Part shown: in pieces, positions 3,967-61,206 of the stretch | Position numbering within the stretch: position 1 is the stretch's first letter | Layout of the letters: every line of letters begins with the position of its first letter | Assembly (NCBI GenBank): GCA_965205505.1 | Contig: CBDBHB010000009.1 | Location: 1,824,001 to 1,888,000, forward strand | Length of the DNA stretch: 64,000 nucleotides | Direction of reading: 5' to 3' | From: Acidobacteriota bacterium | GTDB lineage: Bacteria; Acidobacteriota; UBA890; WLXD01 | The notes under the pieces: model-generated | The model's input: only the letters and a program-made list of their open reading frames with translations | The model's database searches: none | Told to the model about the DNA's origin: nothing | Position numbers and translations under genes: made by a program

Positions 3967-5550
3967 ATGTCAGAACAAGCTACTTCAACGTATTGTGCCG
4001 ACGGTGAGAGCCTCACATCACTGGCAGAACAACCCAAACAACTAAAATATTGCGTGAATGGTGAGTGGCTTACATCCAGCACTGAGACTTATATGGACTG
4101 CTACAACCCATCCACGGGCGAGATCATTGCTCAGGCTCCACAATGCACAGCAGAAGAAGTGAACTCAGCAGTCGCAGCAGCCAAGGCCGCTTATCCGGGA
4201 TGGTCTAATACCCCTGTGGTGCGACGTGTTCAGATCTTGTTCAAACTCAAGACACTACTCGAACAACATCTGGATGGGTTGACTGAGATACTCGCCCGAG
4301 AAATGGGAAAGGCTTGGGAAGAAGCAAAGGGAGACATCTTAAAAGTAATTGAAGTCGTCGACTTTTCCTGTGGTATGCCGCATCTCATGAAAGGGGAATC
4401 CCTGATGGATTGCAGCACGGATTATGATACGACTATGTATCATCATCCAGTTGGTGTTTTTGCTGGAATCGCCCCCTGGAATTTTCCCGCAATGATCCCC
4501 CAGGGTTGGATGGCTCCGATTTGTATCGCCGCGGGAAATTGTTTCGTACTGAAAGCCGCTAGCTTTGTTCCTCAAACATCAATGCGAATCACGGAACTAT
4601 GGTATGAGGCCGGGCTCCCCAAAGGCGTTTTGAACGTAGTAACCACCAGCCGGAATGAAGCGGAACTGCTACTCGAGCATCCTGATATCGCTGGTGTTAC
4701 TTTTGTGGGCTCAACCAAAGTCGGCCAGCATATTTACTCGACCGCCGCCGCGAATGGCAAACGGGTTCAAGCTCTGACTGAAGCCAAGAACCACGCCCTG
4801 GTCTTGGAAGACTGTGTCCTGGAAAGGACAGCCAGGGGAATTGTCAACGCGTTCTGCGGGTGTGCCGGCCAACGGTGCATGGCGCTTCCGGTTGTTTGTG
4901 TTGAAGAGAGTATTGCCGACAGGTTGGTTGAATCTCTGGTGCGACTCTCCTCCGAATTAACATTGGGACCGGCCTATGAACGAAGCACTGGCGTTGGACC
5001 GGTAGTGAACAAGGGCCATTTGAAATACGTCACTGATTGGATTCAAACGGGTGTTGACGAAGGGGCTACACTCGTTCTTGATGGCCGCAACCCTGACGTG
5101 CCGGGTTATGACAGTGGCTTTTATGTTGGACCAACCATCTTTGATCACGTGACCGAAGATATGACGGTTGGGCGGGATGAAGTCTTCGGGCCTGTTATCT
5201 GCGTAAAACGCATCCAAGACTTTGAAGAAGGCCTGGCCATTATGAACAACAGTGAGTTTGCCAATGGTTCGTCGATCTATACTCAAAGCGGCTATTACGC
5301 CCGTGAGTTTTCCAAACGAACTCATGGTGGCATGGTTGGTGTGAACGTTGGTATTCCAGTCCCTCTGGGAATCTTTGGTTTCACCGGACAGAAGAAATCA
5401 TTCTTTGGTGATTTACATACCATGGGAAAGGACGGTGTGAGGTTCTTTACCGAACTAAAGTGTGTCACCACTACCTGGTTTACGGAAGACATGGGATCGG
5501 ACAAGGTCAATACCTGGGACGGAACCATCGATGTTGGGTCGAACGACTGA
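3967..5550 (+). CDS. mmsA: CoA-acylating (methyl)malonate-semialdehyde dehydrogenase, intact, lower GC than its surroundings
   Basis: IAPWNFPAMIP, FVGSTKVG, EAKNH, catalytic GCAGQRCMA, EVFGPV and GMVGVNVGIPVP motifs; many A/T-ending codons. Confidence 0.93.
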   Translation: MSEQATSTYCADGESLTSLAEQPKQLKYCVNGEWLTSSTETYMDCYNPSTGEIIAQAPQCTAEEVNSAVAAAKAAYPGWSNTPVVRRVQILFKLKTLLEQHLDGLTEILAREMGKAWEEAKGDILKVIEVVDFSCGMPHLMKGESLMDCSTDYDTTMYHHPVGVFAGIAPWNFPAMIPQGWMAPICIAAGNCFVLKAASFVPQTSMRITELWYEAGLPKGVLNVVTTSRNEAELLLEHPDIAGVTFVGSTKVGQHIYSTAAANGKRVQALTEAKNHALVLEDCVLERTARGIVNAFCGCAGQRCMALPVVCVEESIADRLVESLVRLSSELTLGPAYERSTGVGPVVNKGHLKYVTDWIQTGVDEGATLVLDGRNPDVPGYDSGFYVGPTIFDHVTEDMTVGRDEVFGPVICVKRIQDFEEGLAIMNNSEFANGSSIYTQSGYYAREFSKRTHGGMVGVNVGIPVPLGIFGFTGQKKSFFGDLHTMGKDGVRFFTELKCVTTTWFTEDMGSDKVNTWDGTIDVGSND

Positions 5551-5699
5551 GCTCCTAATATTTGGCGTTTGTCAGGTAATCTCGTTTCGTTGACGTTTCA
5601 TACATGCTGCAGCAGCAATACGACCGGCAGGTTTGACGCTGCGCGGTACGTGAGGACGGATCGGTAGAGCCCTCAGCTGCATGGGTATCTCTTTCTACG

Positions 5700-6292
5700 G
5701 TCCTCTCGAGGAGGGAGCTTCCATCGTCACGGACGGCCGCGGCCTGAGTGTTCCGGGTTGCGAAGGAGGCTTGTTCGTCGGCCCGACATTGTTCGATCAC
5801 GTCAAGCCTCCGATGCGAATCTATCGCGAGGAGATCTTCGGCCCAGTGCTGGCGATTGGGGCCATTTGCGGCGTTGGCCTTCCTCGACGATGGCTAGGGC
5901 ATCGCCAGTGTCAGGCCGCCTTGCATCTGGCCCCAACTCGCCGTAACCAGACCCACCACACTTTCACCACGGCCTGCTAGCACTTCACCGATGCCATCGA
6001 GCTGGTCAACAACAACGAATTCGCAAACGGAACCGCGATCTTCACGAACGATGGCGGCGCTGCCTGGCGCTTTCAGCAAGAGATTCAGGTGGGTATGGTG
6101 GGCATCAACGTGCCGATACCCGTACCGATGGCCTATCACTCGTTCGGTGGGTAGAAGAGCTCGCTGTTCGGCGCGTGTTCGATCTACGGTCCAGAAGGTG
6201 TGCACTTCTACACGCGACCGAAGGTCGTGACGACCCGCTGGGCCGACTCGTCTCAGCGCGGCGTCGATCTGGGCTTCCCACGCTCGCACTAG
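5700..6292 (+). pseudogene. mmsA: C-terminal fragment of the high-GC mmsA, interrupted by a half-MITE and an in-frame TAG
   Basis: [11 protein letters not shown]...[28 protein letters not shown], then the repeat at 5851-5980, then [22 protein letters not shown]...[26 protein letters not shown]...FYTRPKVVTTRW. Confidence 0.88.
5851..5980. repeat. Family-A MITE, half copy (one hairpin module plus one terminal repeat ending CTAG)
   Basis: Near-identical to the reverse complement of 9200-9330; ends CCAGACCCACCACACTTTCACCACGGCCTGCTAG. Confidence 0.9.
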
Positions 6293-6389
6293 ATGAGATG
6301 AGAAGGCCAACCTCCTGAACGCAGTAGCCTGACGGCTCTGCAAACGTTTCTTCAAACGTAACGGGCTCGAAGCCCAAGGAGGTTGGCCG

Positions 6390-7436
6390 ATGACAAGTGT
6401 AACGATTGGACTGGACGTAAGCGACCGGTACAGCCGTATGTGCGTGCTCGACAGTAAGGGCAGGGTGATGGAGGAAGGGCGGGTGAGGACGAGCCCGGAG
6501 GGGCTGGCGAGGCGGTTCGGGTGCGAGGAGCCCGCTCGAGTAGTGCTGGAGGTTGGAACGCACTCGCCGTGGATGAGTGAGCAGTTGAAGCAACTGGGTC
6601 ATGAGGTGCTGGTGGCTAACCCGAGGCGGCTGAAGCTGATCTATGGCGAGCACGACAAGACCGACCGGTTGGATGCCGAGCACCTGGCACGAGTGGGCAG
6701 AATGGACCCAAAGCTGCTTAAGACGGTGCAGCATCGAGGCAGACAAGCGCGAGCGGATCTAGCCGTGATTCGGAGCCGAGATGCTCTGGTAAAGAGCCGC
6801 ACGCAGTTGGTGAGCCATGTGCGTGGTGCGGTCAAGTCGGCCGGTTGTCGTATTCCCAGGTGCTCGACGCCGGCGTTCGCGCGCACCGCGCCAGAGCACA
6901 TACCGGAGCGGCTCAAGGGAGCGCTCGAGCCGGTGCTTGAAACGATCGCCATGCTGACGGGCAACATCCAGCAATACGAGCGTCAGATCGCGCAGCTGTG
7001 CCAGGGGCGATACCCGGAGACACAGCAGCTCCAGCAAGTGGCCGGGGTCGGAGCTCTGACCGCACTGGCGTATGTGCTGACGCTCGAGGAGCCGGAACGG
7101 TTCAATACCTCCAGAGCCGTGGGCCCGTACCTGGGACTGAGACCGAAGAAACGGCAGTCGGGGGACAAGGACCCTGCGCTACGAATAACCAAGGCGGGCG
7201 ACAAAATGCTCCGACGCCTGTTGGTGGGCTCGGCGCATTACATCCTGGGCCCCTTCGGGCCCGATACTGAGCTCAGACGCTGGGGGCTCAAGCTGGCCGG
7301 ACGCGGTGGTCCTCATGGCAACAAAAAGGCAGCAGTTGCTGTCGCCCGTAAGCTCGCCGTTGTGCTGCACCGACTGTGGCTGAGTGGAGACGAGTACGAA
7401 CCGTTGCGCGCACCTGTAGAGGTTTCAGCAGCATGA
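6390..7436 (+). CDS. IS110-family DEDD transposase/recombinase
   Basis: IGLDVS, VLEVG, KTDRLDA (RuvC-like DEDD), GVGALTA, and GLRPKKRQSG carrying the conserved Ser; ends AVARKL. Confidence 0.96.
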   Translation: MTSVTIGLDVSDRYSRMCVLDSKGRVMEEGRVRTSPEGLARRFGCEEPARVVLEVGTHSPWMSEQLKQLGHEVLVANPRRLKLIYGEHDKTDRLDAEHLARVGRMDPKLLKTVQHRGRQARADLAVIRSRDALVKSRTQLVSHVRGAVKSAGCRIPRCSTPAFARTAPEHIPERLKGALEPVLETIAMLTGNIQQYERQIAQLCQGRYPETQQLQQVAGVGALTALAYVLTLEEPERFNTSRAVGPYLGLRPKKRQSGDKDPALRITKAGDKMLRRLLVGSAHYILGPFGPDTELRRWGLKLAGRGGPHGNKKAAVAVARKLAVVLHRLWLSGDEYEPLRAPVEVSAA

Positions 7437-7682
7437 ACTAACCCGCAACCAGGAGGTCGGTAGGGCGACGCGACCCAACGGTTATCGATCTGACCGCCCG
7501 GTCCGGGCGACTGCGAAGGTCACTACGAGCTTCGAGCTCGGCAGCTAGATTGCAGCGCCTCGAATCGGGACGGACCCCAGAATGCACCGGACGACCTGAA
7601 TCCTCGTCCACCAGAGTGCGAATAGGAGCATGGCGTGCAGATCGATTCTTCGCTGGGCACCACATTGCCCTTGACCGAACTA
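7437..7682 (+). ncRNA. Putative bridge RNA / seekRNA in the 3' non-coding region of the IS1111 element
   Basis: Stem CTGCGA/TTGCAG encloses AGGTCACTA, hairpin CGAGCT-TCG-AGCTCG, and GCAGCTAG (7511-7555); these segments match the insertion site. Transcript ends are unknown. Confidence 0.72.
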
Positions 7683-7696
7683 GGCCTTCTCATAGA

Positions 7697-8000
7697 AGTG
7701 GCCTGTAACAGATGATCGTTGCATATCGCAGATGGGATTTGCGGGCGCCTTGGATCTGCGCCCTTGGCGACGTAACCAGACCCATCACACTTCCATCACG
7801 GCCTGCTGGACATCGTCCAGGAGCCGCAACGCCGATATCGCCCGCAACTGCCCATCTGTCCGGAGGATGGGGGCGAACTGGGCCCGTCTGCGGCGTTGCT
7901 CCTCCTCCAAGATGGGCAAACATCGTCTCGTCGGAGCGCCTGACATCCGGGCCCATTTCGCCACCACGATAGGCAACGATCATCTGTTACAGGCCACTAG
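7697..8000. mobile_element. Family-B MITE with 32-bp terminal inverted repeats; contains a degenerate family-A fragment (about 7745-7809)
   Basis: AGTGGCCTGTAACAGATGATCGTTGCATATCG (7697-7728) versus CGATAGGCAACGATCATCTGTTACAGGCCACT (7967-7998), one mismatch; ends in CTAG; no credible ORF. Confidence 0.88.
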
Positions 8001-8126
8001 AGCCGCGAAGCAAGGGGAACGAGCCGATGACTTGCTCGGTACCTGGTGAGCGACGCGAGCGGGGATTAGGGTACAGGGAACGACTGCCAAACAACGTTCG
8101 GGAAACCAATCCGGAGGTGAAACCAG

Positions 8127-9119
8127 ATGAACCTCAGAAGCGGTCTGCTGCTTGTGTTCCTCGCTCTATTGGGCCTCGGAATCCCGTCGACCTGGGCCTC
8201 TTTGGGTCAGGGCTCGAGAGGCTCCCAGGACCAAAATCCCGAGCTACCCGCGTGGCAATGGCCATGGGAGAGAATCGAAGACGCCGTCGGCCAAGCAACG
8301 GCAGGTAAGGATCTCACTCCGGATCCCTGGCCGGGCGGCAACCGTGTTGCCGTGGCGTTGAGCTTTGACTTGGACAACGAGACTTTGTTCCTCAGCAGCG
8401 GTCAGACCTCGCCGGCATTGATGGCCGAAGGGGCGTATGGCAGTCGTGCCGGTCTGCCGCGGATTCTGGATGTGCTCGAGCGCTACGAGATTCCAGCCAG
8501 CTTCTTTATCCCGGCCGTGATCGCCCGCCTCAACCCTGACGCGATTCGTAACATTGTCGATGCGGGGCACGAGATCGGGCTTCACGGCTGGATCCACGAG
8601 GCCAACTCGGAGCTTAGCGAAGCCGAGGATCGCGAGTTGATGGGGCGCGCGATCCGGACGATCGAAGAGCTGACCTCCAAGAAGATCGTCGGCATCCGCA
8701 CCCCCTCATGGGACTACAGCGCCAACACTCCGAAGCTGATCGAAGAGTACGGCCTGCTCTACGACAGCAGCTTGATGGCTGACGACCGGCCGTATCAGTT
8801 GGTCTACAAGGGCAATCCCACTCCGATCGTCGAGCTTCCGGTGACCTGGATCCTCGACGACTGGCCCTACTTCTCGATGAGTGGGGGGGCATCGCTACGT
8901 ACGTTCATAACTCCGGAGGAGGTACTGGAGATCTGGAAGCTGGAGTTCGACCGCGCCTACGAAGAGGGGACGCTTTTCCTTCTGACCAACCATCCGCACA
9001 TCATCGGTCGACGTTCGCGTATCGTCGTGCTCGAGGAGCTCGTGCGGTATATGAGATCGTTCTCCGGTGTTTGGTTCGCGACCCACGAGGAGGTCGCCCG
9101 GGCCGTACAGATGTCGTGA
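8127..9119 (+). CDS. Secreted polysaccharide deacetylase (CE4, PuuE/PgdA-like)
   Basis: Signal peptide; SFDLD, HEIGLHGWIH, GIRTPSW, YDSSLM and NHPHIIG motifs. Confidence 0.9.
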   Translation: MNLRSGLLLVFLALLGLGIPSTWASLGQGSRGSQDQNPELPAWQWPWERIEDAVGQATAGKDLTPDPWPGGNRVAVALSFDLDNETLFLSSGQTSPALMAEGAYGSRAGLPRILDVLERYEIPASFFIPAVIARLNPDAIRNIVDAGHEIGLHGWIHEANSELSEAEDRELMGRAIRTIEELTSKKIVGIRTPSWDYSANTPKLIEEYGLLYDSSLMADDRPYQLVYKGNPTPIVELPVTWILDDWPYFSMSGGASLRTFITPEEVLEIWKLEFDRAYEEGTLFLLTNHPHIIGRRSRIVVLEELVRYMRSFSGVWFATHEEVARAVQMS

Positions 9120-9199: not shown

Positions 9200-9474
9200 C
9201 TAGCAGGCCGTGGTGAAAGTGTGGTGGGTCTGGTTACGGCGAGTTGGGGCCAGATGCAAGGCGGCCTGACACTGGCGATGACCTAGCCATCGTCGAGGAA
9301 GGCCAACGCCGCAAATGGCCCCAAATCGCCGTAACCCTTCGGGCGACAGGGGGTTGCGCGCGTATGCTGCGTCGTTCCTCGTCAACGATGGGGTACCCAT
9401 CGCCTCCTCCTCTCTCCTTGCCTGCACTTCGCAAGTCCCTGTCGCCAGACCCACCACACTTTCACCACGGCCTG

Positions 9475-60358: not shown

Positions 60359-60366
60359 TCAGGCCA

Positions 60367-61206
60367 CTAGATGGTTACCCCGAAGCGTCCCTTTAGGGCG
60401 AAGGCGAGGGCAATCGTCAAGATGAAGAAAACGATCAGCCAGTCGGTCTCGAAGCCGAGAACACCGACAGCACGCGTCGGGTAGATAACCTCGATCTCGA
60501 TGATAGCCCCGTCGCGGGGTAGGGAAGGCTCGGCCGGGTACAGCAGCGAATTCAAGAACCCAGGCTTGAGCCTATAGGGCGATCGACGCACGACAGCGTC
60601 GGACACCACGATCCGCTTGGTGACGCGTTGGCCGGCGGCTTCGATCTGTACCTCGAAGTTACCTGGGCTGTCGGCCACGATCCGCCAGGCGAGCTGATTT
60701 CGCGCCGGTATCCAGACGCGCGGGCTGTCGAGCCGTAGACCGGCGGGCAAGCTCACGGCGGACTCTGGAGCGGTGCTGGTGGCTAGTCCGTCATCGAGGC
60801 TCACCTGCAGAACGGTCTGCTCGCCAACCGTGAGGCCCCGATACGCGTAGTGGAATTGCAGCTGGGCAATGACCAAGACGAACGGCACTATCATGAACAC
60901 CATCGGCACCAGGTTCAGGCCGAGATAGGTCATGTTGTCGCGCAGGATGCCGCCCTGAGCACGCAGGATCGCCACGATGTCGTCGTTGAACAGGCGGATC
61001 TCGAACAGGCCGGCGGCGATCTTGCGCTTGACGCGCTCAATCGCCGGCTGGTTGGAGGTGGCGCGGTATCCGAGCAACATCAGCACCGAGCAGCCCAGCG
61101 ACACTATCGTCAGCCCGACCATCGGGTGTAGCTGCCGAAAGGGCAACAGCATCAGGTCGAATAGGGGGCGCAATAGCCCGTTCACAGCGCCGAGAATGGC
61201 GTTCAT
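60367..61206 (-). CDS. Membrane protein with DUF106/EMC3-like architecture
   Basis: Amphipathic N-helix, TM1, helical hairpin, TM2 (PMVFMIVP), soluble beta domain, C-terminal TM (DWLIVFFIL). Family assignment is an inference. Confidence 0.65.
   Translation of the reverse strand: MNAILGAVNGLLRPLFDLMLLPFRQLHPMVGLTIVSLGCSVLMLLGYRATSNQPAIERVKRKIAAGLFEIRLFNDDIVAILRAQGGILRDNMTYLGLNLVPMVFMIVPFVLVIAQLQFHYAYRGLTVGEQTVLQVSLDDGLATSTAPESAVSLPAGLRLDSPRVWIPARNQLAWRIVADSPGNFEVQIEAAGQRVTKRIVVSDAVVRRSPYRLKPGFLNSLLYPAEPSLPRDGAIIEIEVIYPTRAVGVLGFETDWLIVFFILTIALAFALKGRFGVTI

Follow-up and report, generated by a model that had tools for sequence, protein, structure and literature searches.

An IS1111-type insertion sequence at the tip of a miniature inverted-repeat transposable element in an Acidobacteriota genome, and its predicted guide RNA

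The insertion sequences IS4321 and IS5075 of the IS1111 family, in an account that goes back to Partridge and Hall in 2003, reportedly use the inverted repeats at the ends of the Tn21 family as their target, in one orientation. [quoted passage not shown] The elements of the IS1111 and IS110 type choose their targets by an RNA from their own non-coding region, which is called seekRNA (PMC11187229) or bridge RNA (PMC11208160). In our study, we analysed a stretch of 64,000 nucleotides, hereafter the window, from an Acidobacteriota bacterium (assembly GCA_965205505.1, contig CBDBHB010000009.1, positions 1,824,001 to 1,888,000). An IS1111-type insertion sequence (IS) was found in this window at the extreme tip of a MITE (Table 1). 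The element looks active, and it is very probably guided to the MITE tip by an RNA that is encoded in its 3' non-coding region.

The element and its landing site

The left junction of the element read CACT/AG/ATGAG and the right junction read CATAGA/AG/TGGCC. Direct reading and a script check found the AG dinucleotide, at 6291-6292 on the left and 7697-7698 on the right, to be the sole bases common to both junctions, and there was therefore no target duplication. The window read ...GCTCGCACT AG ATGAGATGAGAAGGCC... at 6281-6308 and ...GGCCTTCTCATAGA AG TGGCCTGTAACAGATG... at 7683-7714. When the element and one AG were removed in silico, the 20-mer that the script returned matched positions 7981-8000 exactly in reverse complement. 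The original prediction, made from the letters of the window, had proposed these junctions with their AG core and without duplication, and had expected excision to restore this very sequence; both proposals were borne out. It had also placed the element at 6281..7728. An element was present there, whereas its true extent was 6291-7696 and the wider range takes in some flank.

The transposase was found to contain the domains PF01548 (DEDD_Tnp_IS110; 1.1e-17) and PF02371 (5.5e-17) in Pfam. It scored 206.9 bits against the NCBIfam model NF033542, 'IS110 family RNA-guided transposase', for which the cut-off is 140, and it weakly matched the solved structures of the ISCro4 and IS621 transposases. 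The transposases of the IS1111 type have 330-350 amino acids and the motif GL-P----S(t)G (PMC11187229); the 348 amino acids of the present protein lie within this range, and the stretch GLRPKKRQSG in its translation fits the motif. The terminal extensions of IS1111 elements are asymmetric, with 7 (or 6) bp on the left and 3 bp on the right, and a long non-coding region downstream of the transposase gene is a hallmark of the group (PMC11187229). The non-coding sequence of our element measured 260 nucleotides downstream of the transposase gene vs 99 nucleotides upstream. All of the features of the IS1111 group that were tested in the sequence were found, namely the domains, the length and motif of the transposase, the 11-bp subterminal repeats, which measure about 11-13 bp in the group, the 7/3 extensions, the downstream non-coding region, and a single target and orientation without duplication. 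The element, which had been predicted to be of the IS1111 type, is assigned by these features to the IS1111 group of the IS110 family. In a plasmid protein search, the best plasmid-borne matches to the transposase had less than 37% identity, and all of them were annotated as 'IS110 family transposase'.

The genome of the host (G000) comprised 5.98 Mb in 9 contigs, with 64% GC. A BLAST search of this genome with the element gave 33 pieces, among which 27 were full-length copies at 98.65-100% identity; the rest comprised five partial copies, one being split into two pieces, and a 97-bp remnant of the left end. The flanks of the other copies had been proposed as the test of a site-specific element, and the same target word was found on the right side in 31 of 31 copies and on the left side in 27 of 29. 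The right flank of the copies with an intact right end was GTGGCCT in 30 and GTGACCT in one, and the base that follows these seven nucleotides was G in 27 of the 31. An intact left end was present in 29 copies, and their left flank was CTA in 27, TTA in one and TGA in one; the TGA copy is explained by the presence of three GATGA units rather than two, and no conservation was found beyond CTA. The target word is the 10-bp CT^AGTGGCCT. Free sites with the sequence CTAGTGGCCT numbered 109 on both strands of the host genome, and most of them were followed by GTAACAGATGATCGTTGC..., which is a MITE end. Two of the free sites were present within the window, at 7991-8000 (minus strand) and at 60361-60370. 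The latter, also read on the minus strand, was followed by GACTACTGC, which is not a typical MITE end.

The next 100 nucleotides of the 31 right flanks were classed by BLAST. Multicopy MITE ends, with 26-57 genome matches each, accounted for 20 of the 31, and 8 flanks started with a MITE-like terminal repeat and were short or unique beyond it. The remaining three were not MITE-like; one was the 3' end of a permease-like gene (GGC CAC TAG) and two were the common 3' end of a selA-like gene. The use of a multicopy MITE end as the landing site, as had been predicted, was thus found at most of the copies.

The MITE beside the element was short and non-coding, and it had terminal inverted repeats, a flanking duplication and many copies. 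Its end in the window had 36 matches in the genome by BLAST, and its two ends formed a 28-nucleotide perfect inverted repeat, counted with CTAG, in a script comparison, which is far more than chance would produce. The spacing was 270-279 bp for most of the 35 strict pairs of MITE ends, and CTAG preceded 120 of 186 MITE ends, which is a preference of the MITE for this word. Three of four informative end pairs (CTAG/CTAC, IS/CTAA and TTAG/CTAG) fitted a 2-bp TA duplication with the repeat starting at G, and a 4-bp CTAG duplication fitted none of the four. No autonomous partner of the MITE was found among end pairs 700-3500 bp apart, which held ordinary genes or this IS and no second transposase. 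The partner of the TA/CTAG at the far end (7998-8000) was found at 6289-6292, across the IS. Because the matching TA lies beyond the IS, the MITE was inserted first, and the IS then split the MITE from its flank. The insertion point did not reach into the terminal repeat of the MITE further than its first base, if at all, and GTGGCCTGTAACAG... was whole beside the IS. The original prediction held that the insertion disables the MITE copy; the anatomy does not support this, because the terminal repeat stays intact next to the IS.

The left flank of the element, at positions 5681-6290 of the window, resembles the aldehyde dehydrogenase gene at 3967-5550 and looks like a paralogue of it that has decayed. 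Its reading frame was broken, for example by an in-frame TAG near 6153, and its end read ...CGC TCG CAC TAG. It is therefore on the stop codon of this apparent pseudogene that the MITE came to lie, followed by the IS. A second repeat, with the end ...CACGGCCTGCTAG, was present in the window at 5940-5980 and also at 7770-7812 and 9200-9457 (minus strand). The same CACGGCCTGCTAG end forms the left flank of three other IS copies (C9:1190475, C6:103353 and C6:189958), and some insertions therefore lie at the junction of two repeats with one common CTAG.

The related genomes were examined for empty sites. When the DNA of 40 relatives was searched with the IS, close copies were absent; the best match was 69% in G011, and short IS end fragments were found in G004, G014, G018 and G020. 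At the end of the permease-like gene, the congeneric genome G004 contained an orthologous region that was contiguous and free of the IS. It read ...AACGCTGTCTAGTCGCCTCTGAGAAGTTCC... / ...GCTGTCTAGTCGCCTCTGAGAAG..., with CTAG followed directly by TCGCCTCTGAG; the host genome read ...AATGCTGTCTAG, the IS and TGGCCTCTGAGAAGTTCC... at this place, with the IS between CTAG and TGGCCTCTGAGAAG. Because the orthologous site of G004 is contiguous, the insertion point is confirmed and GTGGCCT is part of the target. An empty site in a relative had been predicted, and it was found in this one orthologue with one base off the predicted word, a C for G at flank position +3. A difference of one base is ordinary at a flank divergence of about 10%. 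At the end of the selA-like gene, G004 was without about 12 nucleotides (CTAGTGGCCTAA) that the host genome has between CTAG and CGCCTGG (L090 vs L012), and because of these 12 or so differing nucleotides the G004 site is not a simple empty site. The extra bases CTAGTGGCCTAA are a possible footprint of a MITE, by which the target of the IS would have been created. A search for an orthologue of the GTGACCT site gave repeat-like matches only.

Segmental duplicates with one empty copy were absent from the host genome, where the sole common left flank was that of C6:423091 and C6:512431, both occupied. These two copies were found in opposite orientation, with an identical left flank of 250 nucleotides and different right flanks; the pair is due to an inversion or a duplication that the IS mediated, or else to an artefact of the assembly. 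In the read data, seven runs contained at least half of the sampled words, and the assembled contigs of four runs, which drop rare forms, were compared with the window. A contig of 362-365 nucleotides in each of the four runs matched positions 5953-6314/6317 with 0-1 differences and reached 24-27 nucleotides into the IS. These contigs are only a hint of the IS at the locus, because 24-27 nucleotides fall below the 31-letter rule for bridging.

The predicted guide RNA and its relatives

The predicted stem-loop in the 3' non-coding region (Table 1) had a folding energy of -37.1 kcal/mol (z = -2.98), which was reached by none of 200 shuffles. The right guide, AGGTCACTA in DNA letters, was the best top-strand complement to TAGTGGCCT in the whole non-coding region, with a single rU:dG wobble, between rU7520 and the G that stands at flank position +4. 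All nine conserved bases of the site (TA+GTGGCCT), and no others, pair with this guide, and in the sole natural variant of the flank, GTGACCT, the U:G wobble is replaced by U:A. The closing stem contained GACTGC on its 5' side and GCAGCGCC on its 3' side. In the seekRNAs of IS1111 elements, the top-strand match is present 5' of the bottom-strand match (PMC11187229), and the guides of our element follow the same order with the top-strand match first. A seekRNA encoded in the non-coding region, with the top-strand complement 5' of the bottom-strand complement and the two overlapping in the target, was thus recognised at the sequence level only. The predicted loop also resembles the target-binding loop of a bridge RNA, in which a left and a right guide overlap at the core. 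We conclude that the guide is correctly located in the 3' non-coding region; by analogy with the family, the guide RNA would be transcribed and bound by the protein.

The proteins of 400 genomes from the phylum were searched for homologues of the transposase, which were present in 25 genomes besides that of the host, and one further locus was taken from the genome contigs. The comparative set contained twelve elements (43-58% amino acid identity, plus this element) with differing flanks. Elements with a truncated gene (L073, L074 and L076), those with no repeat or scaffold of the family type (L056, L058, L062, L063, L064, L066, L068, L071, L075, L077-L079 and L082) and second copies of one element (L080, L081 and L083) were left out. 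None of our conclusions depends on G166, an unpublished genome. The twelve elements were found to contain a conserved subterminal repeat ATGAG(A/G)AGGCC, the extensions AGATG(G/A)G and (A/G)GA, and an AG core. Their RNAs had a common scaffold, in which GACUGCG(A) was followed by a guide, a variable hairpin, a second guide ending in the core, and AU(U/G)GCAG (AGAU(U/G)GCAG). The closing stem was predicted in 11 of the 12 elements with compensatory changes, such as GGGCG/CGCCC, CGAUG/CAUCG and GGAUG/CAUCC.

The guide windows of each RNA were scored against the flanks of every element, and the result was subjected to a permutation test. The mean score of the right guide was 8.4 for the cognate vs 4.6 for the non-cognate flanks, and that of the left guide was 5.7 vs 2.3. 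The observed total was reached in 0 of 20000 permutations. L057 and L059 had similar targets, and their guides cross-matched. In L067 (genome G217), the core was AA instead of AG, and this change was present jointly in the flank, in the left end of the IS (AAATGGG) and in the RNA (UAA-AUGG). The left guides of the relatives matched their own left flanks over 6-10 nucleotides, and that of our element matched CUAG only. The element of G334 (L065/L083; 51% amino acid identity) had a conserved right flank, AGGCGATTACA, which matched its right guide, whereas its left flanks were unrelated and its left guide was about 3 nucleotides long; it may be a second IS that is aimed at one end of a repeat.

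The mechanism that we propose starts from the landing word CT^AGTGGCCT, which is made up of the flanking (C)TA and the first seven bases of the abundant MITE terminal inverted repeat. The site would be read by the guide RNA from the 3' non-coding region, be it named a seekRNA or, in bridge-RNA terms, the target-binding loop, with the 9-nucleotide guide AGGUCACUA pairing with the top strand over TA+GTGGCCT. Recombination at the AG core would then insert the element without duplication, with its right end always against the MITE repeat. The left match has 4 nucleotides, three of which are also under the right guide, and the recognition would for this reason be almost one-sided. The left guide requires no more than CTAG, a word at which the MITE itself prefers to insert, and the IS is therefore able to use the tip of any MITE copy, whatever DNA lies next to it. 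Occasionally the IS would also land on chance occurrences of the word, as at the gene end GGC CAC TAG. The present analysis demonstrates the element's anatomy and its specificity for the site, the existence of empty sites, the complementarity of guide and target, and the covariation in the relatives. Beyond these, the RNA would be made and bound and a circle would be formed, with chemistry as in IS621 and ISEc11.

Other features were found around these parts of the element. The 11-bp inverted repeat of the leader pairs the left end of the IS with the ribosome-binding site AGGAGG of the transposase gene, and by covering this site it could stop the translation of read-through transcripts. A promoter scan of 6200-7800 gave no sigma-70-like site. 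An outward promoter with the hexamers TTGACC (7671-7676) and TAGAAG (7693-7698) was considered and dropped, as its second hexamer fails the rule of the scan. A variant of the right end, with CTCTTAGAA in place of CTCATAGAA, was present in 8 IS copies of the host genome (e.g. C9:685113 and C6:189958); at the end of the selA-like gene this variant places a stop codon one codon into the IS, with ...GHF as the last residues of the host protein. A miniature form derived from the IS, about 110 bp long, was found at C9:2875347-2875442 plus about 15 nucleotides beyond. It consisted of the IS left end (positions 1-97) fused at GGCC to a slightly changed right end, TTCTCATCTAGAA, and its site was not GTGGCCT.

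Table 1. Positions in the window of the insertion sequence, its predicted guide RNA and its target
Feature	Position	Strand	Remarks
IS1111-type insertion sequence, 1406 bp	6291..7696	+	From the junctions; 6293-7698 is equivalent (AG core assignable to either end)
Left terminal extension AGATGAG, 7 nucleotides	6291..6297	+	Core AG first
Left subterminal inverted repeat ATGAGAAGGCC	6298..6308	+	Complementary 11/11 to 7683-7693
5' leader with inverted repeat GGCCAACCTCC / GGAGGTTGGCC	6305..6388	+	Repeat arms at 6305-6315 and 6378-6388
Transposase gene, 348 amino acids	6390..7436	+	Single long open reading frame; DEDD/RuvC-like N-terminal and IS110 C-terminal domains
3' non-coding region, 260 nucleotides	7437..7696	+	With predicted guide RNA gene and right end
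Predicted seekRNA / target-binding stem-loop	7495..7570	+	76 nucleotides
Predicted right target guide AGGUCACUA (DNA AGGTCACTA)	7517..7525	+	Pairs with top strand TAGTGGCCT
Apical hairpin CGAGCUUCGAGCUCG	7526..7540	+	Between the two guides
Predicted left target guide CUAG	7545..7548	+	Identical to top strand CT+AG; followed by conserved AUUGCAG
Right subterminal inverted repeat GGCCTTCTCAT	7683..7693	+	Perfect 11-bp partner of 6298-6308
Right extension AGA, then core AG	7694..7698	+	AGA at 7694-7696, AG at 7697-7698
Left half of split target, CTAG	6289..6292	+	TA at 6290-6291 is one copy of the flanking TA of the MITE
MITE, 300 bp	7698..7997	.	Terminal repeat begins GTGGCCTGTAACAGATGATCGTTGC; TA flanks at 6290-6291 and 7998-7999
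Free perfect target site CTAGTGGCCT	7991..8000	-	At the other end of the same MITE

The variable base of the target and alternative explanations

The base opposite U7520 was examined in the 31 occupied sites; it was G in 30 and A in one, and never T or C. The fourth base of the MITE repeat (window position 7701) was found to be polymorphic, G or T, throughout the genome, and the T ends were never occupied. In the MITE family ATGATCG, 60 of 66 free ends had G at +4, and all 12 occupied ends had G; the occupied ends made up 12 of 72 G-variant ends and 12 of 78 ends in total. In the family AGGTTCG / RAATCCG, 43 of 47 free ends had T and three had G, and the six occupied ends all had G, being 6 of 9 G-variant ends and 6 of 53 ends in total. 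One occupied end was the same as a free paralogue over 75 nucleotides save for the +4 base. We favour the explanation that the IS efficiently finds the rare G variants in an older MITE family, because pairing with U predicts just this pattern, in which G or A is present and T and C are absent.

The alternative that survives best is that T ends (GTGTCCT) are also used, and that the flank base is rewritten to G on insertion, either by co-transfer of a few bases of the donor flank or by strand exchange to the right of the AG core. It would explain why six of six occupied ends read G in a family whose free ends are mostly T, and why an occupied end and its nearest paralogue differ over 75 nucleotides at the +4 base alone. 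It would also agree with an occupancy that is equal between the two families over all ends (6/53 vs 12/78, p = 0.61) and unequal over the G-variant ends (6/9 vs 12/72, Fisher p = 0.003). Simple guide pairing, however, already predicts that only G and A, which both pair with U7520, are occupied; the A-variant copy was left unrewritten, the T family may simply be older, and the one-base difference of the G004 site is expected at the divergence of its flanks. The transfer of a flank is, moreover, absent from the parts of the seekRNA and bridge-RNA papers on which we draw (PMC11187229, PMC11208160), and we regard rewriting as improbable. Slightly less improbable, and still doubtful, is the broader proposal that the insertion is non-conservative at the flank, with the IS landing on T ends and the base opposite U7520 being replaced by the G of the previous flank, or, in a softer version, with T as an escape allele immune to the guide. 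If rewriting were true, strand exchange or branch migration in recombination of the IS1111 type would reach past the AG core, by several bases on its right side, and if T were an escape allele, there would be an arms race between the MITE and its own parasite.

A less probable alternative again is that the transposase protein alone reads the target and the complementarity of the non-coding region is coincidental. The left guide has just 4 nucleotides, and the analysis yielded no RNA evidence, both of which suit a reading by the protein. The guides, however, track the flanks in the 12 related elements beyond any of the permutations, the AG-to-AA change of the core in L067 is mirrored in its RNA, and RNA dependence has been shown experimentally for members of the IS1111 family (PMC11187229). 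Taken together, these make recognition by the protein alone quite unlikely.

There is next to no probability that GTGGCCT belongs to the IS as its final part, with only CTA or CTAG as the real target: the word does stand at the right end of all 31 copies (one as GTGACCT), but this reading is already refuted by the empty sites, that is the 109 IS-free CTAGTGGCCT sites, mostly MITE ends, and the G004 orthologue, while in the window GTGGCCT completes the perfect inverted repeat with the far MITE end, one copy deviates from it, and the 7/3 rule of the extensions puts the end of the IS at AGA. Equally remote is the reversed order, in which a MITE that prefers CTAG or TA, as its 120 of 186 ends suggest, was inserted beside a resident IS: the matching TA lies across the IS (6290-6291 vs 7998-7999), so that the IS splits the MITE from its duplication, the right end of the IS offers AA and not TA, the same IS is also present at sites without a full MITE, and the guide of the IS is complementary to the MITE repeat.

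Guidance of the element to the MITE tip by its own RNA remains the reading that we prefer, and the following results weigh against it. The left guide of 4 nucleotides is not statistically distinctive alone. The match of the right guide was weak or displaced in three of the twelve related elements (L061, L069 and L072). A donor-binding loop was not confidently found, with only short imperfect matches to the abutted IS ends; a conserved CCC..AUGCAC motif was present downstream of the target loop in the relatives, and no clear pairing was assigned to it. No Rfam family matched positions 5500-8500 at E <= 1 (evalue mode). Among the contig joints listed for the four runs, neither the joint of an empty allele (6290>7699) nor that of a circle (7698>6293) was present, and none of the RNA runs checked for the stretch contained it. 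The unequal occupancy of the G-variant ends in the two MITE families is also not predicted by the simple model.

Significance and comparison with known systems

The element offers a clean natural data set for the study of RNA-guided recombinases, in which 31 insertions are matched by over 100 free sites and by 12 related elements whose guides differ, all in genomes of an uncultured lineage. With an almost one-sided guide design, of 9 nucleotides on the right and 4 on the left, the IS would land beside every copy of another mobile element whatever the context, and selfish DNA would thus be used by the IS as a safe harbour. This design bears on the minimum length of the left guide in the engineering of bridge and seek recombinases, and the pattern of G, T and A at one guide-paired position amounts to a natural specificity experiment. 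The insertions also account for rearrangement hot spots and altered gene ends in the host genome; the target word CTAG contains a stop codon.

Like IS4321 and IS5075, the element lands in a single orientation at the terminal inverted repeat of another transposable element; unlike theirs, which is the 38-bp repeat of large plasmid transposons of the Tn3 family, its target is a chromosomal MITE. With IS1111 of Coxiella it shares a MITE as the hot spot, a DEDD transposase, subterminal repeats and a 3' non-coding region, although the two transposases are distant. The target in Coxiella is a GTAG REP palindrome inside the MITE, 10-20 bp of which come to lie across the IS (PMC5896051), whereas the target here is the extreme tip of the MITE (TA/CTAG and the first seven bases of the repeat) and the MITE body is whole. 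The full-text searches, which left subscription journals and ISfinder outside their scope, found no report of an IS110 or IS1111 element that has the tip of a MITE repeat as its target.

The predicted guide is like the seekRNAs of ISEc11, ISXne4, ISPa11 and ISKpn4 in its position in the downstream non-coding region, in a top-strand match that lies 5' of the bottom-strand match and overlaps with it, and in the natural retargeting between relatives (PMC11187229). It differs from them in a bottom-strand match of 4 nucleotides, which would make the recognition almost one-sided. As in the bridge RNA of IS621, the predicted loop contains two guides for opposite strands that overlap at the core dinucleotide, and the core AG of our element, when read from the opposite strand, is the CT of IS621 (PMC11208160). 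IS621, in contrast, belongs to the IS110 group, has its RNA in the left end, and has its guides in the reverse order. The behaviour of the present element is a known one, of which this locus is a new and well-documented example.

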